This document shows, piece by piece, positions 6,975-64,000 of a stretch of DNA of 64,000 bases. A program made the translations under genes and the position numbers. The notes below the pieces were generated by a model. The model did no database searches. It was not told the DNA's origin and saw only the letters and a list, made by a program, of their open reading frames with translations. Numbering within the stretch: the stretch's first letter is position 1; each line of letters begins with the position of its first letter. The stretch is from sequence record OQ938542.1. One strand, 5' to 3'. This stretch comes from Escherichia phage vB_EcoP_PE007.

Positions 6975-8192
6975 ATGCAACTGTTAACCGCTCGTGAATA
7001 CCTGAAAGTAGATATTGCTAATAACTATGGCTTAGATAAGAAGACATGGGATGAGCGTATTGCCTGGTTCGATGAGAACGAAGCTAACCTGCTTAATCTG
7101 GTAGATGAGGCAGAGGATTCCGCTCTGTTCTTTGCAGGTATAAACGCATGGAAAGACATGAAAGCAGGTAAGCCTATCGGTTATGCCGTAGCTCTGGATG
7201 CTACATCATCTGGCTTGCAGTTACTGGCCTGCCTGACTGGTGACCGTTCTGCTGCTGAACTGTGTAATGTAGTTAACTACATGGGAGAGAATGGTAAGCC
7301 ATTACGTCGTGATGCTTATACAGTTATCTATCACAAGATGCTGGACATCCTTGGTGAAGCATCACGTATTAAACGTAGTGACACTAAGCAGGCAGTTATG
7401 ACTGCATTCTACGGCTCAGAAGCCAAGCCTAAAGAAGTATTCGGTGAAGGTATTCGTCTCAAGACTTTTGAGAATGTAATGGAAACTGTTGCTAGTGGTC
7501 CTTGGGCATTGAACAAGTTCTTACTGCAATGTGGTAATCCAGATGCCAACCGTTACATATGGATACTTCCTGACAACTTCCATGCTGTCATTAAGGTCAT
7601 GGTTCCAGAAGTACAGACTGTTAACTTCTTAGGCAAACCGTTCGACATTACTCGTATGGTTCAGGGTACTGAAGAGAAGACTCGTATGCTCTCTGCTAAC
7701 ATCACCCACTCTATTGATGGAATGGTGGTACGTGAGATGCTACGTCGTTGTAACTTCGACATGAACCAGGTGGGCTATATTAAGTCCCTTTGCGAGGGAA
7801 CAGGTGATTACATGGTTGGATCTGATGATAACTATGAAATGGTTAATACACTGTGGACTAGTTATGAGAAATCAGGCTTCCTGTCTACTCGTATCTTTGA
7901 CTATCTGGATTCAGAAACCATTGCATTGGTTGATACAGATGTAATCCTGGCTATGCTCAACACTATGCCTAAGAAACCATTCCCTGTAATGACTGTACAT
8001 GACTGCTTCCGTTGCCATCCTAACTACGGTAATGACCTGCGTCGTCAATACAATCAGATCTTGTCTGACATTGCTAAGAGTGACTTACTGGGCTTCATTC
8101 TGTCTCAGGTACTGGGACAAGAGTTCTCTGCTGGTAAGCTGGATGACAGCCTCTGGCAGGACATCCTTGAAACAGACTATGCGTTGAGTTAA
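6975..8192 (+). CDS. RNA polymerase II large subunit-like, T7-like single-subunit RNAP catalytic fragment (N4 gp16-like)
   Basis: 405 aa; DATSSGLQLLA resembles T7 RNAP motif A (DGSCSGIQH) and MTVHDCF resembles motif C (HDSFG). Confidence 0.65.
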   Translation: MQLLTAREYLKVDIANNYGLDKKTWDERIAWFDENEANLLNLVDEAEDSALFFAGINAWKDMKAGKPIGYAVALDATSSGLQLLACLTGDRSAAELCNVVNYMGENGKPLRRDAYTVIYHKMLDILGEASRIKRSDTKQAVMTAFYGSEAKPKEVFGEGIRLKTFENVMETVASGPWALNKFLLQCGNPDANRYIWILPDNFHAVIKVMVPEVQTVNFLGKPFDITRMVQGTEEKTRMLSANITHSIDGMVVREMLRRCNFDMNQVGYIKSLCEGTGDYMVGSDDNYEMVNTLWTSYEKSGFLSTRIFDYLDSETIALVDTDVILAMLNTMPKKPFPVMTVHDCFRCHPNYGNDLRRQYNQILSDIAKSDLLGFILSQVLGQEFSAGKLDDSLWQDILETDYALS

Positions 8193-9407: not shown

Positions 9408-9716
9408 ATGACACAGAAATTACGTGTATGGCACATTCCCCAAATGCCAATGAAGGCATTTCATGTAGAAACTGATAGTCTTCAGGAAGCTGTTAAGATT
9501 AAGAATGCGTTAGCAGACTATGACCTATTCCAGTATGAGAACAATGTCAAAGGCGATTATGCTAATGCTAACGGTATTGAGATGTGGGATGAGTCCCTCA
9601 CTGACCAAGACCTTATTGATAGGGAATTGGAGGACCGTTGGGTAGATTGGTATATTGAAACTGAAGACGATTTCTTTGATGACCCAGAAGAATATCTGAA
9701 TTATCTAATCAAGTAA
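9408..9716 (+). CDS. acidic hypothetical protein
   Basis: 102 aa, strongly acidic C-terminal half. Confidence 0.5.
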   Translation: MTQKLRVWHIPQMPMKAFHVETDSLQEAVKIKNALADYDLFQYENNVKGDYANANGIEMWDESLTDQDLIDRELEDRWVDWYIETEDDFFDDPEEYLNYLIK

Positions 9717-9769
9717 GTATGATTGCTTTATTTGGGGTTATAAACCCTGAAATGAAACCCTCAAGTTTG

Positions 9770-9798
9770 ACCTCCCTATTGAAGGGAGGTCTTTTTTT
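9770..9798 (+). terminator. intrinsic terminator
   Basis: acctccc/gggaggt stem plus ttttttt. Confidence 0.7.
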
Positions 9799-9823
9799 GA
9801 CTTAAACATCCTGGAGCCAGGAA

Positions 9824-10012
9824 ATGTACAAAGAGATTGCGTTTTTCTCATTCTTACTAGGTGGTTTGATAGGTGCAGGATTTGTAGCTATTTCTAATAC
9901 CTACTTTGGTTCTACTCCAAACTCTGTAACACAAACCCTCAAGCATGAATGTGAATTGAATATCCCTCGTAATCAAAACTGTGTAATGCAGTTCGTACCG
10001 GAGAAGAAATGA
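9824..10012 (+). CDS. small membrane protein
   Basis: 62 aa with hydrophobic N-terminal segment. Confidence 0.45.
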   Translation: MYKEIAFFSFLLGGLIGAGFVAISNTYFGSTPNSVTQTLKHECELNIPRNQNCVMQFVPEKK

Positions 10013-10269
10013 ATATTCATAATCTACATTTGGTTGAAAAACTGTATGAAGAATACAACGACAACCGACAGCAATTAGCTAGTTTGAAGAAAGCTCCACA
10101 TATGGTGAAAGTATCCTTTTACGATAAGGATTTAGGACCGCAAGCTCGTACAAGAATACTACCTGAGCTACTGTCATTTTATCAAAATAAGGTAGATGAC
10201 TTAGAGAAACGCCTGAAGCATTTAGGTGTAGATTTATCAACGCTACCGGATGAAGGAGAAGATGAGTGA
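10009..10269 (+). CDS. hypothetical protein
   Basis: 86-aa ORF, overlapping start/stop. Confidence 0.5.
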   Translation: MNIHNLHLVEKLYEEYNDNRQQLASLKKAPHMVKVSFYDKDLGPQARTRILPELLSFYQNKVDDLEKRLKHLGVDLSTLPDEGEDE

Positions 10270-10475
10270 AAGTAACAAATCGTTCTGAGAACAATGAGGT
10301 AACTTTCGGTGATGTGGAGCCTGCTAATGGTTTTATTTATAACCAGACAGTGTGTTTAAAGATTCACTTACCTGATGGTAAACCTGCTGCTGTTGCTGTA
10401 GAAACTGGTAAATCATTCTGTCTATCTGCAAGTACATTCGTAACACCAATAAACCTGGAAGGATATTACCTTTGA
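10266..10475 (+). CDS. hypothetical protein
   Basis: 69-aa ORF. Confidence 0.45.
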   Translation: MKVTNRSENNEVTFGDVEPANGFIYNQTVCLKIHLPDGKPAAVAVETGKSFCLSASTFVTPINLEGYYL

Positions 10476-10657
10476 AATTAACACAGTCCCAAGCAATCTT
10501 CCTTCGTATGGTTCAAGGTGGCTCTGCCACCAGCAACCGTAATAACAAAACCGCACAGTCTCTTAAAAAGCTGGGCTTAGTTCAGTTCAATACTGGTCTT
10601 GGGTGGTCATTAACCCCTATCGGTGTACTTCAACTCAACGAAATGAAAGGTAACTAA
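10472..10657 (+). CDS. hypothetical protein
   Basis: 61-aa ORF. Confidence 0.45.
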   Translation: MKLTQSQAIFLRMVQGGSATSNRNNKTAQSLKKLGLVQFNTGLGWSLTPIGVLQLNEMKGN

Positions 10658-37300: not shown

Positions 37301-40300
37301 TTAGTTAGTAAGATTGAGCCACGGGTTCAGGGTATGAGCACGTAAGCCTTGACCGAAACCGAAGGAGTAACCAAGATTGCCCTGTGCAGCAATACTAAAG
37401 ATGTTGTCCTGAATAGGCAGACCAACGTTACCAAACATGGTAGGGGTTGGAGCCAACATAGCTATAGCAGCATGCACCGGGTTATTACGAATCATGGACA
37501 CTGCAACTTTTGCAGAACGAATCTTAAAGTTATAGAACCACATTAAACCAACACTTTCCATATACCCACGGAAGCGACCCGGTAGACGGTCATAGTTAAT
37601 AAACTCTTCCGTTACACGTCCTAGTGCTTCTTCACGGGTCTTACCTTTACGCTGAGTCAGTTCATCATAAATGATTGCTTTAGCGATAAAGTCAGAGTAC
37701 TCAACCGTCTTCTGGATACCCTGGAACAGAGCAGTATCCTTAGTGATAAGTGCATAACGACCTGCGTTACGTACAGACTTAGGCAGCTTATCAGCCAGCT
37801 TATCCATGTATTCGTGAAGTTTGCCTTCAGTAATAAGGATATCATCACGACCAATACCAGCATCTGCAATTGAGGAGAACTCACCAGCTTCCAGCAGAGG
37901 CCAGATACTCAAACGTTTATGGCTATCAGAGATGGACTGAATCTCAGCCTTAAGTTTACGAATCTGGTTCGGGTTAGTAGCTGCACGTAATTCTGCTTCT
38001 GCATCTACCTGACGCAGACGAGATTTCAGGTACTGGTTAATCTCAGCAGTCTTCTGTGGAATGCTCTTAGCAATGTTCTTAACCGGTACACCACGAGCAA
38101 TCATCTGATAAAGGTTAGCCAGGAAGTTAACAGCAGGTACGACTACTGACTTAACCACAATCAGAGTCTTAGCTTCTTTAACTAAGTTCTGAACCAGGTT
38201 CTCACCACCCATTACATACTTATAGGCACGGTTGCCAAAGACACCCAGCATAGCTTTCTTGAAGGTATCCAGTGTTTCTGGTGACCAACGGGAATTACCA
38301 GACCAGGCATCACCTACAGAAGCTGCACGATAACCCAGAGCATCGTTGAGCATGTCACGACGTACCCATAATTCACCCGGACCAAACAAACTTTCTGCTT
38401 TCTGACGGGTTTCACTGTTCATCAGCTTAAGTGCATCGGCAGTTACTGGGTCCAGTTTAGAACCAAGAAGGTTAACGTACTGGGACTTATTAGAAGCAGA
38501 CATCTTAATGTCGTTCTCATACATGCTATGCAGGTTCTCAATCAGCATATCATTGAAACGCTGAGCCTTAGCTTCTTCCACCTGACGACCACGCCATACA
38601 CCGATTGCACGAGCAAGATGGTTCTCACCTTCAATGTGCTTCAGCATATTAGGGTCAATGGATTGCTCATAAGCAACCACATTACCATTGGCATCATATA
38701 CAGGCAGCAGTGGTTCATTACCACGTTCACCACGAGCCAGTGCTTTAGTGATACGGTCTACGGAAGGCTTGTCAGTGATACGACCAGCTACCATGGTTCC
38801 CATAGTAAAGCCCGTACCGAGATCTACACCACCAGCAGTATTACGAACGTTCTGTAAGATACCTTGCGAGAAAGGAGCCTGTGCCTGTACTGGTGCAAAG
38901 TAGTAGCTACGTGCTGGTCCACGATTAGCAGAGCTACCCTGATAAGTACCAAGACGTACATAGGATTTCTCAATCAAATCAGCAAACTGACTATCTTCAG
39001 CAACAATCAGGTTAACACCCTGTTTGTTCTCAGTTGGGATGTATCCTTTGTACTGATTCAGGGTTGCACGAGTATCAGACTTAGCTTTAGCCATTTCATC
39101 TTTACGCTGACCAACCAGGTAAGAAGTAGCAAAGTCCATGCCTTCAATTTCTGTCTGAGCCAGTGAAGATAACATCTCACGGTCAGTCTTATTCATTGCT
39201 TCCAGTGCATACAAAGTAATCAGTTTATCCAACTGAGCTACATCTACAACAGAACGTGTAGTCTTACGTTCACCCAGTAAACGAGAAATTGCAGTAGCAT
39301 TACGTAGCAGGTTGTTACCAACCGTACCATTAATCATGTATTGAGCCAGTTGCTTAGATTTACGATTAATCAGAGGCCAGTTACGTCCTGCTTGTTTCTG
39401 TAAATCTGCTTCCAGTTTATTAACCTCACGGTCAACAATCTTCTGGTCAGTCAGCAGGTCACGGATTTCAGCCAGAGACATAGTGTCGCGAAGAACAGCT
39501 AAGTCAGTTTTACCCATACCAGTATGCATTGCTTTCCACTCATCGTTAGTCAGCTTACGGCTGAACTTAGATGCGATAGTAGTAGGCAAATGCTCACGGA
39601 ACTGCTGACGGTCAGCCTGTACCTGTGCACGTACTGCTTTAATCAAATCATATACAGAAGCATTGCTCTTAGTACGACCAGTTAAGTCATTAACCAGGTC
39701 ATGGAAAGGTTGCCATACTTTACCCTGGTTCATTGCAGCCATAACACCTTCAGCTACGATTGCACCATTCTTCTCTGTAGCAATAGCAGCTATCAATTGT
39801 GCAGCATGAGCAGCACCTTTAACCAGTGGGTTCTTGGTATTAGCTGCAACTTCACGAGCACCTTCCAAAGCACGGGTAGACAGTACATCAATAGAGTCCA
39901 CCAGATACTGGTTAGCACGGTCAATAGCATTACCGGTAGGAGTAGCAACGGAATCATAGAAGGACTCTGCATTAAGACTGGTCTGCATAATTGTCTGAGC
40001 CAGTGCATCCATACCTTCCTGTACGTTAGTGGCTTTAGTATCACCTGCTACACGAGCATTCAGGCTAGCCATTGCAGCAGTACCGATGTTAGTCAGCATT
40101 GCATCAACGGTATTGCCTGATTTCTTATCTGCTTTCATAACAGGAATATCAGCCAGTACCTTACGTACCTCTTCGCTTACCATTGCCAGACCAACAAAGG
40201 TAGGCAGTAAGGAAGAACGACCTTGTGCATCAAATTCAATGTTGTTAGCACCCATGATGGTATCGAACTTCTGCTGTGCATAGTAACGGTCAGCAGGGTT

Positions 40301-43300
40301 AGTACTATCCGGGTCAGCCATGAATGATTCGACGGTCAGATTCTTAGTAACATGCGTGTAGTATTCCTGTGCACGAGCCATAGCAGCAGGGTTAATAGCA
40401 GCCTCGGTAGCCAGTGCAGCAACAATGTTAGTAAAGAGACGCTGTTCCTGCATATTCATGGTGAAGCCATGTGCCTGAACATCACGAGTTACTTTAGTTG
40501 CATTTACTACTGCATCAGAGAACTTACCTTTACGAATTACTTGCTGTACTGGTTCTGAACCAATGTAGTTAGTAATCAGCTTATCGAAGGTTTTCCCTAG
40601 CTCTTCCAGACGAGTATTGTCACCGTATGCTTTGTTATGGAACAAGGTAGTATCTTTAGCTACAGCAGTAGTAGGGGCCTGCCCACGCATTACTACAGCA
40701 GAGTTAAACAGTAAGCCAGAGAACATATCATCTGCATTAGCAGGAGCTTTCTTACGTCCGAATACCAGACGTTTGATTGCTTCATATACAGCCTGAACCA
40801 TAGTTTTAAGTGCAGTGGTTTTCTTCTGCTTACTTATAAGTTCACGGTTGGTTAAACCCCAAGCCATGTACTCATTCAGTGCAGCAGCTTTAGCCATCGC
40901 TGGTTCAATAAAGCCATTAGACAAGTGACCATTAATGGTATTCAGTGCATTAGCATATGCTTCACGTACTGCCGGAGATTCATCCTTAACATCCAGAGCA
41001 CGGAACTGATTCATCAGGTCTTCAATATTCTGTACTGCTTCATTAGGAGTACCTTCATAGTGAGCCAGTACAGATTCAAAAGTAGAAGCATGTACTAATT
41101 CATGAACCAGAGTCTCTAAGGAAGGAGTAACTAAGTAGATGGTTTTATCTTCAAAGTTAGTCCAGCCATATGCATTACCAGCCTCAGCAGCTTCAATATC
41201 TTCTGGTGCTGGGCGAGTAATATTCTTCTCAATAGCGTAGGCATCCAGTTGAGAAGGCGTACCGTAAACAACCTTATAGTCTTTAGCAGCAAGAGATTTC
41301 TGTATTTCTTTCAGTACTGCTTGTTGTTCAGGGGACATCTCTTTAGCCAGTTTAGTAATGGCAGCATTAGACAGCAGACGTACACCAGACTTCAGTACAC
41401 GACCGACCTGTTCCATTGCTGGCACTTCTTTCACTGGTTCTGCTTTAGCAGCACGTACTGCATCACGACGCTTGTTTAATTCAGCATCAAACAGTTCGTT
41501 CAGCTTAGCTACTTGCTGGTCTACAGTCAGACCTTCCAGAGAGATTTTACCGTTGTTCACATAAGGAGCACCAACAGCAGCCATCTGGTCAACAGTGACT
41601 TGTACCTGGTCCATTACCTTGTGGCGAATATCTACACCCAGAGCAATATTACGCAGATTACGTTCAATCTGTTCAGCACCAACACGTAACAGGTCATCAG
41701 TAGCACCCTCACGTTGGTCGTATTCCAGTGCAGATTTAGCGATAGCTTGTTTGGTTTCATCAGACAGTTTGCTGAAGTCTACGTTCTTCATGAACTTAGC
41801 AAAGGAGTCATAAACATTCTTGATAGGGTTACCCTGCCAGGAAGTATATACAGCCTCATTAGCTTTACGGCTTGCATCAGTAATGTCATTAATACCAATG
41901 TTCATACCATCAAAGATTTTCAGGGTATTCTTCGGAGCACCTTTCATAGTAGAAAGGGTCTGCATCATCATGCCATCACCTGTACCGATGGTCATAAATG
42001 GAATACCTGCTACACCTGCCTGTGAAGGAGCATAGATGATCATTGGCACACGCATACGGTCATCTAAGTTGGTAGCCAATACTTGGTTAGCAACATCAGT
42101 ATTCTCACTACCAGCAATGTAGAAAGTCTGTGAACCAGTCTCAATCATTGGAGCCAGTGGAGACAATGAAGCCTGGATTTCATTCAGTTCTTTCTGTGTT
42201 AAGAAATCACCTTTCTTCCATGTTGGGTCTTTTTCTTTTTCTGCCAGCTTAGCCTGTACAGCTTGTTGGAACATATCCTGCAATACCAGAGATTGAATCT
42301 GAGTAGCCTTCTGTAAGTTCTCAGTAGAATACATCAGACCCTCACCAACAGTATTTCGGATACCAGTACGCATTGGTTCAACGAACAGATGAAGCATGTT
42401 CTCTTGTAAGTTCTTCAGAGCATTACCGGATACAGTAAACTTCTGAGGGTCTAACTTACCAGTCAGAGCACCATCTACCTGCTGAATAGACAACTCACCT
42501 TTACGCATAACCGGAACATTACCAGTTAGTGCTTCCATAGAAGTAAGGAAAGTATCCAGCATAGCCTGAGCATCAGCCTCAGACGCAGCCTCCTTACCAA
42601 ACATAGCCATAGCTGGGGAAATGCTAGGGTCAGCAGCACGGGCTTGTAGAACGTCACTGAAGCGTTCGTAGATGGTATCAGTAATTGCACTAACCATCTT
42701 GCCAGCAATACCACGAGCACCAGAACCATAGATGGTAATGGTCAGTGGGTTTTTAGCGATACCACGTTTCAGGTCCAGAGTACCATCTTCATTAAGATTG
42801 AAGTCTTTAATGAACAGGTCCATTAACTTCTGAAGATGCTTCATCTGGTTCGTAACAGGAACGTTGTTACGGTAAGTATTGCGTAATTCATTCAGTGCCT
42901 GTTGCAGACTATTAGTAGATGCTTCATACAGGTCAACACTGTCATCATGCGAATGATGCTCGTTCATAGTCTTGCCAGCTTTACCGAAGAACAAGCCACC
43001 CTTAGCAGTATTCTTAATCCAGTCTGAAGTGAACTTACCACCAGTCATTAATACCATTGCGTTGATTGGTCCGTTGGTTACACCATCGGCTTCAACGTAC
43101 AGTGGGGTATTAAAGTTAGCACGGTCATCACTGTTAAGGTAACGGGCATATTCCATAAGAGCCATGAGAGCTACGAATGATTTATCATTCCCCAAGGAAG
43201 TCTTCAGAATATCCACTGCATTAGCAGGTAAGTGACCAGACTTATCAAACTCAACCATCATATCAACAGCAGGTTTCAGTTTACCTTCCAGAGCTTTAGT

Positions 43301-46300
43301 CAGCTCATCTGACATAACTTCACGGGACATTTTATGAACTTTAATGCCTAATGCCTGAGCCAGTCCAAGCTGGAAGTCAGAGAACGTTTGACTGTTTTCA
43401 TTACTTAAGTCGATGGTAGAGAAGGTTGGAAGGATTGCTTCACGAACCAGCTTACTGGATTGTGGGTTGTTCTTACCAAGCATCTGCATACGACCTACAC
43501 GGGTCATGTTGTAGCCGTAGTGAATAGGTGTATCCAGTCCATTCTCCTGTTCCTTAATTTGATTGATTACACCAAACAAAGAATCATATGCCATGGACAC
43601 GGACAGGTTCTTACCTTCCAGTGATTTAGCAGTATTCACATTAAGCAACTCTGGGGTAAGAGCACCAGCACCCATTAATTCCAGAATGTTGTCACGACCC
43701 AATGCTTCATAGAAGTTAACCATAGGCATATGTACACGAAACTCAGTAGCTTGTTCTGCTTTGAGAGCAGCTTTCTGTTCCGGGGTATTATTAACAGCAG
43801 GGTTACGTAACTGAGTTTGAGCCACGGAAGGAATGTCATCACCCAGATACAATTTCTCTACTGGTTCTAAAAGGACAGTTTCCTCAATAGCAGTAGGGAA
43901 TTTATTAATGGCATCGTTATCATCCAGCTTCTCAATGGTATACAGACCAACAGTCTTATTAGATTCTGGGTCAATCTCAGACACATCTAACATGGACTCT
44001 TTAACTTCACCCATCTCAATAAGGGAAGACAGAATCTCTGTAGCCATTGCCATTGGGATACCCTTGGTATACCCCAAAGGTGCATTAGGATTACGATTCA
44101 AACCCCAATAGGATTCAATCTTTTGAGCTAGTGAGTTAGTAGCTTCAACCAGGGTCTGAGCATTCTCGAAGTCAGCCAGAATACCTTCTGGTAGCAGAGA
44201 TGCTTCCACACCAGTAATAGCAGCTACGTCTTTCATGTCTTTAACAGCAGCATTCTGTGTAGCAGTCAATCGCCATTGCAGACCAGCAAGTACAGCAGTT
44301 TCTAATAGCTGGTCATTGAACTTAAAGGTGTCACCATCTTTCTCTACGATGTTAAGTAACTTACCACCTACCCAACGGTTAGCCTCAGTACCTTCCGCAA
44401 AACGTTTACCAACGTTCTTGTTAGCAAGGAACTTAGCCAGACGGTCAGACAGAGTAGTCTTCAGAGTTTCACCAAACTCAAATAAGTCCTGGTAACGCTT
44501 AATCACATCACTTGTGAGAGCGTTATTTTCTTTTTGAGTAAATGCTTCAAAGCGAGCAGCAGAAGACAGTGCTTTCTTAACATCAGTCAAAGGAGACTCA
44601 GAGCCAATGGTACGAGACTTAGGTTCTTCTGGAAGACTAAATGCTTTAAGGAACTGGTTCGGTGTCTTGTCATTGTTGTAGACAGGGAACACTGTTTCCA
44701 TTTGAGATAAAGGTTTACCACCAACGGTATAGTCTGCTTTCAACTGAGCCAGTGATACTTCTTCCTTCTCTACATTATTGGTATTACGCCCAGACGTATC
44801 TACACCAATCTGAATCAGTGCATTGTTTGCTTCTACGAATGATTGAACAGTATTGAATTGTTCAGGAGTCAGCTTCTGATTATCAAACAGTTGTAATGAT
44901 ACAAATGGTTGCTCACTTCCTTTGTAGAAAGTGGAGCGTACAGCACCAGTATCCAGAGACATATCACGGTAACCATCATGACCAAATACATCAGACAGAC
45001 TGATATGGTCACCATTGGAACCAACAACAGTACCATCATCAAAGAGCCAAGGACTCTCCTTACGGTCACCATACTTATTAAGAGTATCCTGTGAAATAGT
45101 ATTCTCTTTCACATAAGAATCTCTTTCAGATTCAGTAGGCTGTTCAACGGTATCCTGTTTTTCAGATTGGTTCTCAGGTTCTTTTACAGTCTGTGGTTTA
45201 GACTCTTTAATAGTAGGTTCTGTTTTAACAGCTTCACTAACAGAGGGTTTAGTCTGTACAGTAGGGGTAACTGGTTCCTGTTTTGTAACAGGAGTTTCAT
45301 CAACCTGATTCACTGGTTCATTGGTCTGTTGGGATTGAGCAGCATCAAGATTGCCCTGACGGAACTCTTTAACTACCTGGGCGGCAGGCTTGTCCAAACG
45401 TGAATCCAATGGGGTAACTTTCACATGAGAAACATTAAGCTCCGGGTAAGCCGTAGCAAGTGCGTTAGCAATATCAGCTACGGTCTTGGCTTCCAGTCCT
45501 ACTTGCTGGGCAAACTTAACAGACTTGGTATCATACGGATTGACACCGAGGCCAGTACGACTACGTACCCATTCACGCGAGGGAGTAAGAGCCTGATAAT
45601 GGACAGACTTATTCTTATCCGCATTCCCAGAAATCAAATGCTCATTCAACGCTCCGACCTTATTCTGCATGTGCTGGGCGAACTTCATAAAATCGCTCAG
45701 ATAAGCGGAGGCCAAATCGAAGTTACCAGAGTTATACGCAGAACGAATGCGTTTCGCATGTTGCAACGCAGAGTACTGTCCTTCATTAGAACGAGACTCA
45801 TCGGTTTTAATCTGTTTACTAACAATATCTTGAGGACGTAAGCCTAGTTCTTCTGCTTTAGCGTCGAACTCTCGTGCACCCTGTAATAAGGCAGCAGCAG
45901 ATTGCAGGGCAGCACGTTGACGATTCCCCAGTGTAATCTTACCTTCACTTGCATGTTTCAGAACCATGTTCACTGAATCTGCATCCAGCACTTCTGGAGA
46001 TACATCAGCAGCCATAGCAATGTTGTTTGCTTGGGCTTGGTTAGCTTCTTCAGTAGCTTTCAGTTTACCTGCTTCAGCCTGTTCCTGAATCATGGAATGG
46101 ATGGCACGGAATGCACGAAGTACCTTCGGTGTATTCTGAACGTTAGCCATCAGGCCGGAGAATTGGTCTACGATTGCAGCAGCAGGGGAACCTTGTTCCA
46201 GATTAGCCAAAGCACCCGGGTCACGGTTAATGAAGCTATCCATAGACATGATATTGTCATACATCTGGATTGCAGCTTCCATTTGAACGTTAGGGTCTTC

Positions 46301-48055
46301 GGCAGTATTAACCAAGTCAGCCATCTTCTGAATAGCTTCTACACGGTTAGTGGAACCAGAAACAGCTTCACGGATTGCTGGGTTAGTTTGTTCCAATTCT
46401 ACCGGGTCAAACTTCATTGCCTGAGTTAAGTCAGCAGCATACTGGGTAGCAGCAGCTTTCTCTTCTGGAGAAATATCCATTGCATCCACTGCTTCCTGAA
46501 CAGTTGCTTGAGCTTGTTCTGCCTGAGCAGTAGCTTCTTGTGCAGCAGCGTTAACCGTAGCATCAGATACGGGGGATGCTTGTTCATTACGCTTAGCAAC
46601 TTCTTCCCCACGTTGAACCAGGATGTTAGTAATAGGTGAAGCTACTTTTGCTAGTGCCTTACCAGCCAAAGAAGCACCAGCCAGGGTAGTACGTACAGCA
46701 GGACCAACGGCAGCACCAGCAGCCTTAACAGTTGCACCAGGAGCTTGAGCAACTCCAGCAGAACCGAAGCCATACAATGCACCCAGACCAGTTTGTTCAC
46801 CCACACCTTTAAGCAAATCACGCTCAGCATCTACATTGCCATGAATTGCCTTGTTTTGTGCAAACTGACTTGTACCAGACTGGATACCTTCTTCTACAGT
46901 CTCACGCAGCATGTTAGAACCAGCACCAGCCAGTGAACCTACCTTAAGTGGGTTAAGTTCAAACTTGGATACCAGTGGAGCAGTAAGAGCAGCAACTGGA
47001 GCAGTTAAGCCAGCAGCAGTGATACCTGTTTCAGATGCAGTCTGGCGACGTGCTTCTTCAGGAGACAGACCGTCTTTAATATGCTGTTGGTATACAGGAG
47101 ATTTAGCAGCCAGTTCACTGAATGGCATTTCCATAATTTCATTAGCAGTCTGTTGGTATGCACCACCAGCTTCCATACCACCAATTGCTATAGCAGGTGC
47201 AGCAACACGACCAGCAGTCTGTGCAATACGTGCAGGACGATAACCTAATTCAGCAGCTAGGGTAATACCCTTAACAGCTTTATCACCACCTACCATTACT
47301 TTACCAAGTGCAGATACACCACGGATAAGTGGACCACCTGTAAAGAGGGAACCAACACCTTCACTCAGTCCGTCAGAAGCAGCCATACCATTATCAAGTG
47401 TGTTAGCAACAGAATCAAAAGCGTCACGACCAATACGAGACAAGGAGGCAACCAAATCGCTCCCCCCATTTTTGATATCTTGTTCATAGAGCTTCTGGTT
47501 CTTCCGTGCAGAAATCTGGTTCTGATTCTGAACAACTTTACGTGTAGCATTCAGTGCATCAGACTGTAGATTGTGTACACCCTCATTCAACCAATCCATC
47601 CCGGAAGCAATGGTTGCCCCGGCATTATTATTGACCAAACCTGCGCCAAGAGCAGCAATGCCCCCAAGGGTATTAGCAACACCAAGACCAACACCAGAAA
47701 GAGTATCGCCAAATGCTTCTGCGTTAGTACGTTGTTTAGATAAGTCCTGACGTACAACATCAGCAGCATTAGCTCGGCTATTAAGAATCTGTAAACCTTG
47801 CTCATTACCGTACTTATTAATGATTTCTAATGGGGAGGCTTGAGTGAAATCTGCCTGAAGTGAACCTGGTTCGAATGCACCGATTCCAAGATTACCTACT
47901 CGTCCAGTCTGGAGATTGTAAGCATTCTCTGGGGTTAATTGGAAAGGGCTTTGCCCTTGTGCAGCTTGCTTCTGAGAGGTTGCAGTAGAGACATCGACTT
48001 GCTTAGCATTAGTGATGCTGTCTGCGAAACCTGCCAGACGGTCAAATGTTGACAT
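37301..48055 (-). CDS. virion-encapsidated giant RNA polymerase (N4 gp50-like vRNAP)
   Basis: single uninterrupted 3584-codon ORF; ATG at 48055 with AGGAAA RBS (track ORF starts at upstream TTG 48073). Confidence 0.8.
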   Translation of the reverse strand: MSTFDRLAGFADSITNAKQVDVSTATSQKQAAQGQSPFQLTPENAYNLQTGRVGNLGIGAFEPGSLQADFTQASPLEIINKYGNEQGLQILNSRANAADVVRQDLSKQRTNAEAFGDTLSGVGLGVANTLGGIAALGAGLVNNNAGATIASGMDWLNEGVHNLQSDALNATRKVVQNQNQISARKNQKLYEQDIKNGGSDLVASLSRIGRDAFDSVANTLDNGMAASDGLSEGVGSLFTGGPLIRGVSALGKVMVGGDKAVKGITLAAELGYRPARIAQTAGRVAAPAIAIGGMEAGGAYQQTANEIMEMPFSELAAKSPVYQQHIKDGLSPEEARRQTASETGITAAGLTAPVAALTAPLVSKFELNPLKVGSLAGAGSNMLRETVEEGIQSGTSQFAQNKAIHGNVDAERDLLKGVGEQTGLGALYGFGSAGVAQAPGATVKAAGAAVGPAVRTTLAGASLAGKALAKVASPITNILVQRGEEVAKRNEQASPVSDATVNAAAQEATAQAEQAQATVQEAVDAMDISPEEKAAATQYAADLTQAMKFDPVELEQTNPAIREAVSGSTNRVEAIQKMADLVNTAEDPNVQMEAAIQMYDNIMSMDSFINRDPGALANLEQGSPAAAIVDQFSGLMANVQNTPKVLRAFRAIHSMIQEQAEAGKLKATEEANQAQANNIAMAADVSPEVLDADSVNMVLKHASEGKITLGNRQRAALQSAAALLQGAREFDAKAEELGLRPQDIVSKQIKTDESRSNEGQYSALQHAKRIRSAYNSGNFDLASAYLSDFMKFAQHMQNKVGALNEHLISGNADKNKSVHYQALTPSREWVRSRTGLGVNPYDTKSVKFAQQVGLEAKTVADIANALATAYPELNVSHVKVTPLDSRLDKPAAQVVKEFRQGNLDAAQSQQTNEPVNQVDETPVTKQEPVTPTVQTKPSVSEAVKTEPTIKESKPQTVKEPENQSEKQDTVEQPTESERDSYVKENTISQDTLNKYGDRKESPWLFDDGTVVGSNGDHISLSDVFGHDGYRDMSLDTGAVRSTFYKGSEQPFVSLQLFDNQKLTPEQFNTVQSFVEANNALIQIGVDTSGRNTNNVEKEEVSLAQLKADYTVGGKPLSQMETVFPVYNNDKTPNQFLKAFSLPEEPKSRTIGSESPLTDVKKALSSAARFEAFTQKENNALTSDVIKRYQDLFEFGETLKTTLSDRLAKFLANKNVGKRFAEGTEANRWVGGKLLNIVEKDGDTFKFNDQLLETAVLAGLQWRLTATQNAAVKDMKDVAAITGVEASLLPEGILADFENAQTLVEATNSLAQKIESYWGLNRNPNAPLGYTKGIPMAMATEILSSLIEMGEVKESMLDVSEIDPESNKTVGLYTIEKLDDNDAINKFPTAIEETVLLEPVEKLYLGDDIPSVAQTQLRNPAVNNTPEQKAALKAEQATEFRVHMPMVNFYEALGRDNILELMGAGALTPELLNVNTAKSLEGKNLSVSMAYDSLFGVINQIKEQENGLDTPIHYGYNMTRVGRMQMLGKNNPQSSKLVREAILPTFSTIDLSNENSQTFSDFQLGLAQALGIKVHKMSREVMSDELTKALEGKLKPAVDMMVEFDKSGHLPANAVDILKTSLGNDKSFVALMALMEYARYLNSDDRANFNTPLYVEADGVTNGPINAMVLMTGGKFTSDWIKNTAKGGLFFGKAGKTMNEHHSHDDSVDLYEASTNSLQQALNELRNTYRNNVPVTNQMKHLQKLMDLFIKDFNLNEDGTLDLKRGIAKNPLTITIYGSGARGIAGKMVSAITDTIYERFSDVLQARAADPSISPAMAMFGKEAASEADAQAMLDTFLTSMEALTGNVPVMRKGELSIQQVDGALTGKLDPQKFTVSGNALKNLQENMLHLFVEPMRTGIRNTVGEGLMYSTENLQKATQIQSLVLQDMFQQAVQAKLAEKEKDPTWKKGDFLTQKELNEIQASLSPLAPMIETGSQTFYIAGSENTDVANQVLATNLDDRMRVPMIIYAPSQAGVAGIPFMTIGTGDGMMMQTLSTMKGAPKNTLKIFDGMNIGINDITDASRKANEAVYTSWQGNPIKNVYDSFAKFMKNVDFSKLSDETKQAIAKSALEYDQREGATDDLLRVGAEQIERNLRNIALGVDIRHKVMDQVQVTVDQMAAVGAPYVNNGKISLEGLTVDQQVAKLNELFDAELNKRRDAVRAAKAEPVKEVPAMEQVGRVLKSGVRLLSNAAITKLAKEMSPEQQAVLKEIQKSLAAKDYKVVYGTPSQLDAYAIEKNITRPAPEDIEAAEAGNAYGWTNFEDKTIYLVTPSLETLVHELVHASTFESVLAHYEGTPNEAVQNIEDLMNQFRALDVKDESPAVREAYANALNTINGHLSNGFIEPAMAKAAALNEYMAWGLTNRELISKQKKTTALKTMVQAVYEAIKRLVFGRKKAPANADDMFSGLLFNSAVVMRGQAPTTAVAKDTTLFHNKAYGDNTRLEELGKTFDKLITNYIGSEPVQQVIRKGKFSDAVVNATKVTRDVQAHGFTMNMQEQRLFTNIVAALATEAAINPAAMARAQEYYTHVTKNLTVESFMADPDSTNPADRYYAQQKFDTIMGANNIEFDAQGRSSLLPTFVGLAMVSEEVRKVLADIPVMKADKKSGNTVDAMLTNIGTAAMASLNARVAGDTKATNVQEGMDALAQTIMQTSLNAESFYDSVATPTGNAIDRANQYLVDSIDVLSTRALEGAREVAANTKNPLVKGAAHAAQLIAAIATEKNGAIVAEGVMAAMNQGKVWQPFHDLVNDLTGRTKSNASVYDLIKAVRAQVQADRQQFREHLPTTIASKFSRKLTNDEWKAMHTGMGKTDLAVLRDTMSLAEIRDLLTDQKIVDREVNKLEADLQKQAGRNWPLINRKSKQLAQYMINGTVGNNLLRNATAISRLLGERKTTRSVVDVAQLDKLITLYALEAMNKTDREMLSSLAQTEIEGMDFATSYLVGQRKDEMAKAKSDTRATLNQYKGYIPTENKQGVNLIVAEDSQFADLIEKSYVRLGTYQGSSANRGPARSYYFAPVQAQAPFSQGILQNVRNTAGGVDLGTGFTMGTMVAGRITDKPSVDRITKALARGERGNEPLLPVYDANGNVVAYEQSIDPNMLKHIEGENHLARAIGVWRGRQVEEAKAQRFNDMLIENLHSMYENDIKMSASNKSQYVNLLGSKLDPVTADALKLMNSETRQKAESLFGPGELWVRRDMLNDALGYRAASVGDAWSGNSRWSPETLDTFKKAMLGVFGNRAYKYVMGGENLVQNLVKEAKTLIVVKSVVVPAVNFLANLYQMIARGVPVKNIAKSIPQKTAEINQYLKSRLRQVDAEAELRAATNPNQIRKLKAEIQSISDSHKRLSIWPLLEAGEFSSIADAGIGRDDILITEGKLHEYMDKLADKLPKSVRNAGRYALITKDTALFQGIQKTVEYSDFIAKAIIYDELTQRKGKTREEALGRVTEEFINYDRLPGRFRGYMESVGLMWFYNFKIRSAKVAVSMIRNNPVHAAIAMLAPTPTMFGNVGLPIQDNIFSIAAQGNLGYSFGFGQGLRAHTLNPWLNLTN

Positions 48056-48118
48056 AGCATGTTTCCTGTTCAAACTTATATCGTATATAGGTAACTTACT
48101 CTACAGTAAGCCAGTTAA

Positions 48119-59951: not shown

Positions 59952-60458
59952 TTATTCCTGTTCAAAAAGTTTACGGTCAGCCTGGATCTGTTTACCCAAC
60001 TCAATTAGTTGGCTGTCACGGAGTCTAACAGTTGCCCTGAGTTCTTCAACCAAACGTCTGCCTTCTTCAAGATTGTTGTCGAGTCTGGCTGCATGGCTTG
60101 CAAGACTTCTGCACTCAAAGGTTCCGGTTTCGGCTTGACGTTTATATACCGATGCTCGTCTTTCAGACTGTTGCATCCGGCTGTCATAATCACTGCTAAC
60201 GCGAGCAAGCTCGCTTGCGTAATTACTCTCAGCCGTCTGCAACCGGGAAGTGAGTAACCCGACTTCATAACTATGGTTTCTTTGGAGAGCATTGTATTTG
60301 TCCTGTAATTTTTGTGTTGCCTTTTGGTCTTCAACCTTTTGGGCATCCCACTTCTTTTGAACAGTAGACTGTCCGTTGGAATTACCCCAAAAGTAAATGG
60401 TGGCCCCGAGGACCACCACTAGAAGATAAGGCCAACCTTTAGAGATTAGCATCTTCAT
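59952..60458 (-). CDS. i-spanin (Rz-like)
   Basis: ATG 60458 with GGAGG RBS; N-terminal TM ([21 protein letters not shown]) then coiled-coil periplasmic domain; contains embedded lipoprotein ORF. Confidence 0.55.
60005..60268 (-). CDS. o-spanin (Rz1-like lipoprotein) embedded in i-spanin gene
   Basis: alternate frame inside 59952-60458; signal peptide plus lipobox-like ...[12 protein letters not shown]; Pro-rich mature part. Confidence 0.5.
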   Translation of the reverse strand: MKSGYSLPGCRRLRVITQASLLALAVIMTAGCNSLKDEHRYINVKPKPEPLSAEVLQAMQPDSTTILKKADVWLKNSGQLLDSVTAN

Positions 60459-61074
60459 TACATGCCTCCAGTGGCACATTGCCTATTCGGTTAGCTATCC
60501 AACCATACGTAAAGTCTGGCATGTTTAATGAGGTGTAGTGGTTCAGTTGTTTAGCATCTAGTAACTTAATCATTACCCGACATGCTGCAACTTTGCCTCG
60601 TTTTTTCTGTAATGCTTTATATGCATTAACAGTACTTACACCGACTTTACCATCAACCTGTATTTTAGGGTAGTCTTTGCCATCACGGGACATTTCATTA
60701 AGAGATTGCTGTAACCACTTAGCCGGACGAGTTACACCAGTGTTAACACCGGCATCTACCAGCTTGTGTGTTACAGCAGGAGATATATCAGCGAAGGCTA
60801 CGAAGTTAGGCTTAAGTACGTAGTCATCGATGTATATCTCAGCAGCCATCTCTTTAGATAAACCCTTCATAGAACCATCCCAGCCGTACTCAGTAGCCAG
60901 AACTTCTTTATGGGATTTAGCTACAGATTGGGTAATTCCATGATTAGTTTCCCCACCTGGGTCACGAGGATTATTTACATAACCCCCTTCCATATAAAAC
61001 ACTGCCCCCAGGATAGCAGCGACAACTCCTCCCACTGCACCACCTTTCGCAGCAAGTTTCTGTTTAGCTTTCAT
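60439..61074 (-). CDS. endolysin, GH108 N-acetylmuramidase with N-terminal signal-anchor and C-terminal peptidoglycan-binding region
   Basis: 211 aa; EGGYVNNPRDPGGETNHGIT is the GH108 hallmark; N-terminal Gly/Ala-rich weak TM GGAVGGVVAAILGAVFY. Confidence 0.7.
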   Translation of the reverse strand: MKAKQKLAAKGGAVGGVVAAILGAVFYMEGGYVNNPRDPGGETNHGITQSVAKSHKEVLATEYGWDGSMKGLSKEMAAEIYIDDYVLKPNFVAFADISPAVTHKLVDAGVNTGVTRPAKWLQQSLNEMSRDGKDYPKIQVDGKVGVSTVNAYKALQKKRGKVAACRVMIKLLDAKQLNHYTSLNMPDFTYGWIANRIGNVPLEACNEDANL

Positions 61075-61324
61075 GTGAATCTTCCTTTGGTCGGAATCGT
61101 ATTAATCTGCCTATGATGTTTAAGGCAAACAGTGCGATTACAATATTGGAGCCATGGGGAATATCTTCCAGGATGTGACGAGGTAATCCTGTCAGCATTG
61201 GTTGAATGATATCTATGGCAGAAAACATAATTAACCCGAGCGTACTAATCTGGATGGATGCCCACTTCCAGCATCTTTTCCAGTTAGGTACTAGCTCTAC
61301 CTTTCTTTTTAGCCTGCGAACCAT
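61064..61324 (-). CDS. holin candidate (two TM segments)
   Basis: ATG 61324 with GGGAG RBS; 86 aa, two hydrophobic helices; overlaps endolysin start by 11 nt. Confidence 0.45.
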   Translation of the reverse strand: MVRRLKRKVELVPNWKRCWKWASIQISTLGLIMFSAIDIIQPMLTGLPRHILEDIPHGSNIVIALFALNIIGRLIRFRPKEDSHES

Positions 61325-61638
61325 GCGAATATCTCCCGTCTTGCAGCAGCCAATACACCAATAATTGCACCTGCCCCAGCCCACACCCACTTACCAAAAA
61401 TTCCAGCACCAACAACTTTATGCTTAATGGTGATGAACTCTTCAATAGTAGGTTCATTCTTAGCTAAGCTATCCTCCACATTCTTTAGTCTATTGCCTAT
61501 GTCATTTATTGAATCCCGTAGTTCTACCAGAGTTTCCTCCAGTTTCTCACGGTCCTGCCTGTCCCTTGTCTGGTTCTCAAACAGAGTCTTCAATCGTTCC
61601 TCCAGTCTGACTAGAAGCAGTTCGCCTGATTCGTTCAT
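61309..61638 (-). CDS. coiled-coil protein with C-terminal transmembrane anchor (lysis-associated?)
   Basis: 109 aa; helical N-terminal region, C-terminal GAGIFGKWVWAGAGAIIGVLAAA. Confidence 0.4.
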   Translation of the reverse strand: MNESGELLLVRLEERLKTLFENQTRDRQDREKLEETLVELRDSINDIGNRLKNVEDSLAKNEPTIEEFITIKHKVVGAGIFGKWVWAGAGAIIGVLAAARREIFAWFAG

Positions 61639-61854
61639 AGTATTACCGTAGTTGTGTAGTTAGAATCCCCAATAGGGTCGTATCATAAGATGACTCTTAG
61701 ATAATACTTAGTATGATGGGGTACATCCAGACATAGTGTCTGGTAGCAACCCATGGTGGATGGTATTTAGTTAGGTATGTTTAACATATCCGGGCAAGTA
61801 ATTACCCTAACAGCAGTATCGGTTAGGGTAATGCAAACAGTAAACTCTATATGA

Positions 61855-61878
61855 GAAAAGGCCCAAACTGGGCCTTAG
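61855..61878 (-). terminator. intrinsic terminator downstream of tailspike gene
   Basis: aaggccc-aaact-gggcctt stem with T-run on - strand. Confidence 0.6.
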
Positions 61879-61884
61879 TTTTAA

Positions 61885-63999
61885 TTAAATCAATCCATAA
61901 ACTGCATTGTGTATTACGACACCCCCAACAACTGAAGAAACATTAAAATTAATTTCAGCTTTGTAGGCTCCTTGTGGAACGCAATCCACCAAAGCATAAA
62001 AGTTGAACGTGTTTACCACTGGGATGATATATCCTATGGAATCCGCAACAGTATTTCCTTGCTGGTCCAGGAATCTAATTGACGCCAGGGTGGTTGTTGT
62101 ATTTTTAGCCCAAAAACCAAGCTGAAAATAACGACCCGGTTCACAATCAATGATTGTTTGGGTGAAGTTAGCTGCTGCATCTGCTGATGGTACAGATAAA
62201 ACAAAAGAAGTTGTAAACATTAAATTGTTAGGAACATCGTTTGCTGTAGTAGCAGTGACAACGCCTGTTCCAGTTTGCGAGAGTGTCCAGTTAGATGTGT
62301 TTTCAAACTGTCCTGAGCCATTGCTAATGCTATTAATATAAGGGCTTACAATGCTTCCTAGATTCCAGTTAGTTGTAATAAACCCTGCACGAGGGAAGCA
62401 CCCTCTGGACATTACTTTTTTGCTAGCGCCACCTATCAACTGTCTTGTAGCAAATCCAGTAGCAATCGTTGTGTTACCGTAGAGGGGCAATGAGCAGTTA
62501 TTTAAACTAACTACCCCGTCACCATTACTAACAATAGGCACTGTACTGTAGCCTTCCGGAAGCAGAATAGTAGAATCTTTAATACTGAGGCGTGAGCTTC
62601 CACTCACAGTAAAGCCTACAAAACTCTGCCCAGGTTGATACTCAATATTACCGTTAGCAAATACTAAGGTAGCATTACCACTTAATGCCACTACTGGATC
62701 GAAGTAGCCTGCCTTTTTACCTGCTGGTAATGAGCATGAATCAAAGATGAACTGCCCATTCTCAAATGTAAATGGACCCCCATTATCAACCATCCAGCAG
62801 TGGTTGAATTTTATAACCTCACCAGCATTAGCCGGGGAATTAAAGATTACAGAGTTAGTAAAACTGCGAGAAATGGTGCACTTATCAAACAGGATACGGT
62901 ATGCATTATCTTTAAACTCAATACCTGCGGTAGATATAAACCCGCAGTTAGATATACGTAATTCTGCTATCTCCCCTCCAGTACTACTGCCCAAGCACAT
63001 CTTTCGAGTACCTTTACCTACAAAGGAAATACCTGTTAATAGGGCAGTAGCATTAATGGCATCACGGGCTGTGTAATCTGTATTAGAATTGATTACGGTT
63101 AAGTAATACTCTCCTGTTACACCTTCCACTTCCGTAAGGGTACACTTATTGGCTCCTACTAAAGCCCCCTTAGATACATCCAGTACGATAGGTGTACTAA
63201 TAGTCCCTGATGTAGGTACAAGACAATCGTAACCGGCAGAGTTTACCTTGTTAATGAACGGAGCAATGTCCCCAGTACCAGTATAGCCTGCATCGTATAC
63301 CGTAGCAGTACCTTCAAAGAACTTACGCTTCCAGACCACACCTGCACCGGTGAAAGTTACAACTTCATCTACAGGAGTAGTATTAGGAACCGCAATCATA
63401 ATACCCCCACCAACGGAAGAACCTGAGTATGAATCTAGCATTACACTAGACCCTACTGTTGCTCCGACAGAGGCCAGGGCAGTTACGTCGGGTACACTAC
63501 CAATTAAAGTCATACCATCCTGAGATGCCAACTGAGCACGCAAATTAGGATCCGTTTGGGACTTCCAATCCGTGTTGCCAACAGGGTTGGCCCCTTCAAC
63601 AATAGTTACGGGTAGAGAACCTAAGTAGGTATAACCAATACCATTATGCATCAAAAGCTCATTTCGAGTATTTACTACTAAGCCCGTAGTAAATGAATCA
63701 GATAAGCATACAAACTCTCTACGTGCAGCAGCCAGTTCGCCTAAATCAATAGTACCAGCTGAATGAACCAGGACTGCGTGTTCGTTAAGACTAACAGCAG
63801 TAGTTCCTACCGGAAGTACAGGTAATGAGTAAGCACGTTGGGTAGCCTTATCATAAATTACTTTGTATCCACCCAAGTCCACACCTACAGAAAAATAAAC
63901 CACCTCATTCTGCTTAACACCAAACTTACGGGCAATGGCTTGCTTATTGGTAAGAATACCAGTGGAGCCTTTACCACCTTGGGAGAACATCTCGTTCAT
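61885..63999 (-). CDS. tailspike / receptor-binding protein with right-handed beta-helix (putative glycan depolymerase); start at window edge
   Basis: 704 aa; Gly/Ser/Thr/Asn/Val-rich repeats and NCGFISTAG...FDKCTISRSF...NHCWMVDNGG motifs typical of pectate-lyase-like beta-helix. Confidence 0.55.
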   Translation of the reverse strand: MNEMFSQGGKGSTGILTNKQAIARKFGVKQNEVVYFSVGVDLGGYKVIYDKATQRAYSLPVLPVGTTAVSLNEHAVLVHSAGTIDLGELAAARREFVCLSDSFTTGLVVNTRNELLMHNGIGYTYLGSLPVTIVEGANPVGNTDWKSQTDPNLRAQLASQDGMTLIGSVPDVTALASVGATVGSSVMLDSYSGSSVGGGIMIAVPNTTPVDEVVTFTGAGVVWKRKFFEGTATVYDAGYTGTGDIAPFINKVNSAGYDCLVPTSGTISTPIVLDVSKGALVGANKCTLTEVEGVTGEYYLTVINSNTDYTARDAINATALLTGISFVGKGTRKMCLGSSTGGEIAELRISNCGFISTAGIEFKDNAYRILFDKCTISRSFTNSVIFNSPANAGEVIKFNHCWMVDNGGPFTFENGQFIFDSCSLPAGKKAGYFDPVVALSGNATLVFANGNIEYQPGQSFVGFTVSGSSRLSIKDSTILLPEGYSTVPIVSNGDGVVSLNNCSLPLYGNTTIATGFATRQLIGGASKKVMSRGCFPRAGFITTNWNLGSIVSPYINSISNGSGQFENTSNWTLSQTGTGVVTATTANDVPNNLMFTTSFVLSVPSADAAANFTQTIIDCEPGRYFQLGFWAKNTTTTLASIRFLDQQGNTVADSIGYIIPVVNTFNFYALVDCVPQGAYKAEINFNVSSVVGGVVIHNAVYGLI

Positions 64000-64000
64000 A

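Follow-up and report, generated by a model that had tools for sequence, protein, structure and literature searches.

A TSP4-like tailspike gene of the Gamaleyavirus vB_EcoP_PE007 and its predicted O78 O-antigen depolymerase module

Escherichia phage vB_EcoP_PE007 (sequence record OQ938542.1) carries a long open reading frame (ORF) at the very edge of the 64,000-nt stretch of DNA analysed here, which we call the window and whose positions serve as coordinates throughout. In the initial annotation, made from the letters alone, this ORF was read as a beta-helix tailspike that probably determines host range. The questions raised by the locus are whether the gene is whole, which polysaccharide its product would attack and with which residues, and how much of it has been exchanged between phages. 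Our reading, held with high confidence, is that the tailspike is the receptor-binding protein (RBP) RBP2 of a G7C-like phage, standing in the position of gp63.1, with its head on a gp66-like adaptor and a beta-helix endoglycosidase body that acts on the O78 O-antigen through E394 and E453. By megablast of the tailspike region and the first 25 kb, which returned about 40 Gamaleyavirus phage genomes at 92-96% identity, the window can be assigned to a Gamaleyavirus genome (G7C-like, N4-like, Schitoviridae), in line with the N4-like setting that had been suggested.

The ORF is real. It runs uninterrupted on the minus strand from an ATG at 63999-63997 to a TAA stop at 61887-61885, giving a coding sequence (61885..63999) of 704 amino acids plus stop that corresponds in position to G7C gene 63.1 and Gamaleyavirus RBP2; the same stretch read on the plus strand contains many stops. 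The product falls into PHROGs family phrog_4217 ('tail protein', E 4.9e-289), and in a phmmer search against the PDB its residues 20-704 match residues 7-697 of the 5W6H chain, from tailspike protein (TSP) 4 of phage CBA120, with E = 0 and 1138 bits. Neither match can be put down to chance. Identity over these residues is 74% (TSP4 residues ~340-1036), with a collinear D3'-D3-D4 body in the domain names used for the CBA120 TSPs (PMC8825819). This identity is unevenly spread, being 64% for residues 21-100, 40% for 101-170, 53% for 171-230, 67% for 231-350 and 85-91% for 351-704. The tailspike is 80% identical to gp70 of PhAPEC7 and 97-98% identical to the spikes of EC1-UPM, Bp4 and ECBP1, and its DNA is 96% identical across the entire query to Bp4, ECBP1 and PD38 and 94% identical to EC1-UPM.

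Four parts can be laid out along the protein, all encoded on the minus strand. The head domain (D1-D2, residues ~1-150, 63550..63999, boundary approximate) is a predicted docking module for a gp66-type adaptor. It is followed by a neck or linker with a small inserted domain (D3' in TSP4 naming, residues ~151-229, 63313..63549, as aligned to 5W6H), where identity to TSP4 and PhAPEC7 is 53-57%, against 85-95% further downstream. The body consists of a right-handed parallel beta-helix, which would hold the catalytic and receptor-binding functions (D3, residues ~230-560, 62320..63312), and a C-terminal beta-sandwich with a fold like that of a carbohydrate-binding module (CBM; D4, residues ~561-704, 61888..62319). 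These last two assignments come from structure prediction. An AlphaFold2 model from an alignment of 33 sequences (mean predicted local distance difference test score, pLDDT, of 82; predicted template-modelling score, pTM, of 0.68) has a long run of three-strand rungs at residues ~230-560, with pLDDT mostly 80-97, and then the beta-sandwich, with pLDDT ~90; at residues 150-164 pLDDT is below 50. Foldseek against the PDB gives 5W6H as the best match to the model (E 1.2e-89), next the K2-2 tailspike (8IQ5/8IQ9, E ~5e-25, template-modelling score TMt ~0.8, root-mean-square deviation ~3.3 A), also Kp7 gp52 (7XYC), and after these further depolymerases with a beta-helix. Over its last ~150 residues the model also matches CBM61 (2XON, TMt 0.67) and CBM16 (2ZEY, TMt 0.69). 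The beta-helix tailspike that had been proposed from composition and short motifs, and for which a structure prediction had been named as the check, is thus borne out by the model. The compositional signs hold as well: Gly, Ser, Thr, Asn and Val make up 46% of the residues, and the motifs NCGFISTAG, FDKCTISRSF and NHCWMVDNGG are found at residues 351, 371 and 399. Cys352, Cys374, Cys401 and Cys422 lie 22, 27 and 21 residues apart, each interval being one rung of the beta-helix.

A gene that starts at the edge of a sequence invites the suspicion that it is cut off, and the initial annotation indeed held that the N-terminus might continue past the window. In this reading the ORF would be truncated at its 5' end, with the true N-terminus, such as an anchor with XD domains like that of TSP4, encoded past base 64000. 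The window ends one base 5' of the ATG, its last complete codon, so that it cannot by itself settle the upstream frame, and CBA120 TSP4 does have 335 additional N-terminal residues. The comparison with other N-terminal domains that had been recommended tells otherwise: the head is homologous to those of G7C gp63.1 and CBA120 TSP1, and in phmmer alignments M1 and MNEMFSQGGKGSTGILTNKQA fall on residue 1 of both TSP1 (4OJ5) and gp63.1 (4QNL). The heads of TSP1, TSP3 (5W6F/6NW9) and gp63.1, each from its residue 1, align with the first ~170-230 residues (residues 1-173 with 4OJ5 residues 1-178, E 1.4e-56; residues 1-229 with 4QNL, E 1.3e-54). The homologous annotated coding sequences of four close relatives, ECBP1, Bp4 and EC1-UPM among them, are also 704 amino acids long. 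In ECBP1, with its DNA identity of 96%, AAGAGG precedes the ATG and an in-frame TAG and TAA stand 7-8 codons upstream, all of them after a terminator-like hairpin behind the upstream gene. Because M1 aligns to residue 1 of the homologues, the relatives have 704-residue products and ECBP1 has in-frame stops upstream, the ORF is complete by these comparisons; truncation was rejected on the residue-1 alignment and the ECBP1 stops and is given next to no credence. The extra 335 N-terminal residues of TSP4 (anchor and XD1-3) are not expected in this tailspike.

Which residues would do the cutting can be approached through remote relatives of the beta-helix. Residues 230-560 were scored against 1.84 billion representative proteins, giving 30 clusters at E <= 0.001, and 25 hits were aligned with the query (26 sequences, identity down to 22%). 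R368, N391, E394, G415, S423 and E453 are invariant in this alignment. Its profile matches the K2-2 tailspike with E 1e-51, and also 2XOM, in keeping with the CBM-like fold of D4. At the column of E453, wild-type 8IQ5 has Glu and 8IQ9 has Ala; the latter structure shows the E323A mutant of K2-2 TSP with its product, and Glu267 and Glu323 are the catalytic residues of this enzyme, as verified by mutagenesis and by the product complex (PMC10936425). E394 is aligned with the K2-2 Glu that lies 56 residues before E323, which is Glu267. Since they align with Glu267 and Glu323 of K2-2 TSP, Glu394 (codon GAG, 62818..62820, minus strand) and Glu453 (codon GAG, 62641..62643, minus strand) are proposed as the catalytic carboxylate pair of an O-antigen endoglycosidase. 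The motifs NAGEV and NIEYQ around the two glutamates are intact. The CBA120 TSPs are trimers whose beta-helix D3 has its catalytic sites at subunit interfaces (PMC8825819), and the active site of the present tailspike probably lies, like that of K2-2, in a groove between subunits. The enzyme is predicted to be a hydrolase and not a lyase; a lyase mechanism was considered and rejected, the relatives being described as hydrolases (PMC8825819, PMC10936425).

The link to K2-2 is an observation of its own. Profile comparison (E ~1e-51) shows that two depolymerases of Klebsiella K2 capsule, K2-2 TSP and Kp7 gp52 (PDB 8IQ5/8IQ9, 7XYC, 23SH), are homologues of the TSP4/O78 family in which the Glu pair is conserved; TSP4, CBA120 and 5W6H are not mentioned in the K2-2 paper (PMC10936425). 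Both enzymes share the beta-helix and the C-terminal domain with the present tailspike, but identity is only ~18%, they attach by another N-terminal module, and their substrate is K2 capsule instead of O78 O-antigen. This tie at the sequence level, with its nomination of E394 and E453, is the sole small addition made here to what is already published on this family.

Attachment to the virion would follow the G7C pattern. Binding of gp63.1 to G7C gp66 needs the XD3 domain of gp66 (PMC8825819), and attachment via gp66 has also been described elsewhere (PMC6517402). By analogy, we infer that the head domain of the tailspike docks to the XD3 domain of its adaptor. A gp66-like gene stands at the other flank of the tailspike in ECBP1, Bp4, PhAPEC7 and EC1-UPM, in several forms. 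In ECBP1 the gene directly upstream of the tailspike is ECBP1_0073 (375 aa, 9447-10574 of the compared locus, minus strand), which is made up of an N-terminal region, a pair of XD3-like segments and an end resembling D1, with no receptor-binding body; in PhAPEC7 and EC1-UPM it encodes a long gp66-like protein, and Bp4 has two ORFs of 304 and 600 aa instead. Because of these differences (375 residues in ECBP1, long in PhAPEC7 and EC1-UPM, split in Bp4), adaptor architecture is seen to vary within Gamaleyavirus. Pfam gave no match for the adaptor proteins of ECBP1 and Bp4.

The head also has a peculiarity in its D2 part. PF18668 (Tail_spike_N, D2) is matched in PhAPEC7 (E 7.6e-21) and TSP4 (E 7.4e-24), but in the Pfam scan, which yielded no useful match for the tailspike of the window, this protein gave no match to it even at E <= 10. 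As phmmer still aligns this stretch with D2 of TSP1, it is a divergent D2 variant, and it is not assigned to PF18668. At 83-92% identity it recurs in many spikes from ~72-kb and ~155-kb contigs whose bodies are different. It can be speculated, although we regard it as rather doubtful, that the D2/neck variant (residues ~100-230, also in ECBP1, Bp4 and EC1-UPM) is a distinct docking solution, and that in such phages the spike is the only enzymatic RBP, carried on an adaptor without a body. If this were true, a tailspike on a body-less adaptor would be a simplified form of the branched architecture of G7C and CBA120.

With regard to substrate, the main guide is TSP4. CBA120 TSP2, TSP3 and TSP4 are reported to cleave the O157, O77 and O78 O-antigens, respectively (PMC8825819), and a survey makes the same O78 assignment for TSP4 and includes RBP2 of the Gamaleyavirus PhAPEC7 in its O78 RBP subtype (PMC10408124). 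Three phages that were obtained on O78 strains, namely EC1-UPM, AVIO78A and ASO78B, have the same module, and EC1-UPM, whose spike is 97% identical to that of the window, is reported to infect E. coli O78:K80 specifically (PMC3853248). On this basis the O78 O-antigen is the predicted substrate. Where either O-antigen or capsule had been considered before, the O-antigen is thus favoured and a capsule is judged unlikely. The depolymerase reading is supported by the 74% identity to 5W6H, deposited as the 'enzymatically active domain' of TSP4, and the role in host range that had been proposed is likewise supported.

As proposed, the tailspike would be a homotrimer, by homology, whose head (residues ~1-150) docks on an XD3-type domain of a gp66-like adaptor or tailspike. 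The beta-helix (~230-560) would bind the O-antigen of the host and cut it as an endoglycosidase, with the CBM-like domain behind it. Cutting of the O-antigen would let the virion reach the outer membrane, and the host range of the phage would be limited to strains of the O78 type, which are typically avian pathogenic E. coli.

Several points weigh against this picture. The adaptor gene that it expects would lie beyond base 64000, outside the window, and over D2/neck residues 101-170, which lack PF18668, identity to PhAPEC7 and TSP4 is only 36-40%, so that details of docking could differ. The O78 activity of TSP4 is cited second-hand (via PMC8825819 and PMC10408124); a review of the Ackermannviridae offers no detail on O78 or on the active site. 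A further beta-helix RBP (928 aa) is present in EC1-UPM, and the host range of this phage alone cannot assign O78 to the tailspike; for this reason the assignment comes mainly from TSP4. It is conceivable that fold and enzyme class are the same and the substrate is different, either another O-serogroup or the K80 capsule, which the EC1-UPM host also bears. The beta-helix diverges from TSP4 by 9-15%, the receptor-binding domain (RBD) is not identical, and the records of the Bp4 and ECBP1 hosts give no serotype. However, RBP subtypes retain their serogroup specificity even at far lower identity, 30% or more (PMC10408124), the module recurs in the O78-isolated EC1-UPM, AVIO78A and ASO78B, and residues 351-450 are 91% identical to TSP4, so that a different substrate seems unlikely.

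The other alternatives concern catalysis itself. Some beta-helix spikes are non-enzymatic, and the tailspike could be a fibre or spike that only binds; with both invariant glutamates and the NAGEV and NIEYQ motifs intact, and with 5W6H deposited as an enzymatically active domain, we consider this very improbable. Still less can be said for an O-antigen deacetylase that modifies the receptor without cleaving it, like G7C gp63.1, despite the same genomic slot and the homologous head. Similarity to 4QNL stops at residue ~229, the body behind it is a beta-helix matching TSP4, and the catalytic fold of gp63.1 is entirely different from that of beta-helix TSPs (PMC6517402); the gp63.1-like esterase was rejected on these grounds and has hardly any probability left.

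How much of the gene has moved between phages can be seen from genomes that have other spikes at this place. In Gamaleyaviruses of this kind the backbone identity of ~93-96% breaks off between ~61476 and ~61883, and in several of them it returns only in the ~500 bp that code for the head. The modules at this slot in other Gamaleyaviruses are annotated as K5 lyase or endosialidase, and in G7C it is the gp63.1 deacetylase module (PMC6517402). Conversely, the tailspike body is also found with other N-termini, namely in the Kuttervirus TSP4, in ~47-57 kb siphoviruses and in ~150 kb myoviruses, as well as behind P22-type head-binding domains (PF09008) in proteins that NCBI names as hypothetical proteins of Salmonella enterica. 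Similarity at the DNA level extends over 61869-63294 of the window for PhAPEC7 and over just 61878-62966 for CBA120, and because these stretches differ the gene is a mosaic of at least three segments. The swapped cassette is the C-terminal ~530 amino acids only, the gene slot and the head domain being fixtures of the genus. The modular acquisition that had been suggested for the gene as a whole therefore stands for the receptor-binding cassette, with unrelated modules at the slot between flanks of ~93-96% identity, and not for the entire gene. Composition gives no sign of a recent foreign origin, with a GC content of 42.3% in the RBD part and 42.8% in the window.

The tailspike is already known in the sense that near-identical genes are annotated, a 74%-identical homologue has been crystallised, and a published survey names the RBD subtype and its transfer across genera. 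The closest relatives are the spikes of EC1-UPM (AGC31579), Bp4 (orf13, AJB43735), ECBP1 (ECBP1_0072) and PD38, which are 704 aa long, stand at the same locus, have the same head variant and downstream terminator, and differ by scattered substitutions only (97-98% identity). RBP2 of PhAPEC5 and PhAPEC7 has the same slot and the same RBD (85-95% identity over residues 231-704) but another variant over residues 21-230, with 36-68% identity through the greater part of the head, the neck and D3', and it is there that PF18668 is found. From the head through the neck, D3' and the beta-helix to the C-terminal domain, CBA120 TSP4 (orf213, 5W6H, Kuttervirus) runs collinear with the present tailspike, with 40-53% identity over residues 101-230 (end of D2, neck and D3'), but only TSP4 has the ~335 extra N-terminal residues (baseplate anchor and XD1-3) by which it serves as the centre of a complex of four spikes (PMC8825819). 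By analogy, this central role must presumably belong to a separate gp66-like protein in vB_EcoP_PE007. G7C gp63.1 (4QNL) has the same slot between gp63 and gp66 homologues and a homologous head, but its body is a lipopolysaccharide deacetylase of different fold for 4s/O22-type O-antigen (PMC6517402, PMC10408124), in contrast to the predicted beta-helix glycosidase described here. For host-range prediction, the gene marks the phage as a likely O78-specific Gamaleyavirus (avian pathogenic E. coli), and the tailspike is a ready-made, if predicted, O78 depolymerase module. It is also a further case of an RBP cassette exchanged among Gamaleyavirus, Kuttervirus, siphoviruses and prophages, which the literature has already documented.

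Read along the minus strand, the tailspike is followed, after a spacer of 246 bp, by the gp63 homologue, holin, N-acetylmuramidase, Rz-type spanin and portal. The tailspike had been described as lying after the lysis genes, and this is true in plus-strand order only; on the coding strand it precedes gp63, holin, endolysin and spanin. Of the two flanks of the slot, the gp63 homologue (109 aa, 61309-61638, minus strand, PHROG 5211 of unknown function) is confirmed, and the gp66 flank falls outside the window. Eight nucleotides past the tailspike stop is a hairpin like an intrinsic terminator, AAGGCCCA-GTT-TGGGCCTT and then TTCT (61856..61876, minus strand). It is identical in ECBP1, and the genes of PhAPEC7 and of CBA120 TSP3 and TSP4 have a different GC hairpin at the same place, so that each related spike gene has its own. 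A conserved terminator motif ('motif three') downstream of RBP genes has been described (PMC10408124). A scan for sigma-70 promoters found fewer sites than in shuffled controls, and no promoter is claimed.

Apart from the hairpin, the spacer (61639-61884) contains two inverted repeats, one perfect, of 11 bp around a 10-nt loop (61801-61832), the other imperfect, of 18 nt around a 3-nt loop (61716-61754), and the backbone homology of different Gamaleyaviruses stops at differing points within the spacer. The repeats may mark a boundary of recombination or serve in regulation. In Bp4, an extra ORF of 654 bp (orf14, 7137-7790 of the compared locus, plus strand) lies between tailspike and gp63 on the opposite strand. 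It is also present in PD38 and Uz-1, is absent from the window (~61640-61884) and from ECBP1, and gave no match in a Pfam scan; it could be a mobile insert, for instance a homing endonuclease.

Elsewhere in the window, the virion RNA polymerase is encoded by an ORF of 3590 aa (37301-48073), and ARAGORN predicted one tRNA-Ile, with the unusual anticodon AAT (35561-35635, plus strand); for the close relative EC1-UPM no tRNA gene was reported (PMC3853248). Among the lysis genes, the Rz-type spanin (175 aa, 59952-60479, minus strand) gives a match to PHROG 6197, a full-length Rz-like family (E 3e-77), and ECBP1 and Bp4 annotate just the last 74 aa of this locus (a 225-bp 'Rz-like spanin'). Embedded out of frame in the spanin gene is an ORF (60005-60346, minus strand) with a lipobox-like motif, which is likely the o-spanin (Rz1); a PHROG search with it gave no match. 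The N-acetylmuramidase endolysin, of the N4 gp61 type (60439-61074, minus strand), has a hydrophobic Gly/Ala/Val-rich stretch at its N-terminus, AAKGGAVGGVVAAILGAVFY, that looks like a signal-anchor (SAR-type) segment. Finally, Bp4 and several further records name the gp63 homologue a 'tail length tape-measure protein'. This is implausible because the protein has 109 residues and a hydrophobic C-terminal segment and its gene is next to the holin, and the name is probably a propagated misannotation.

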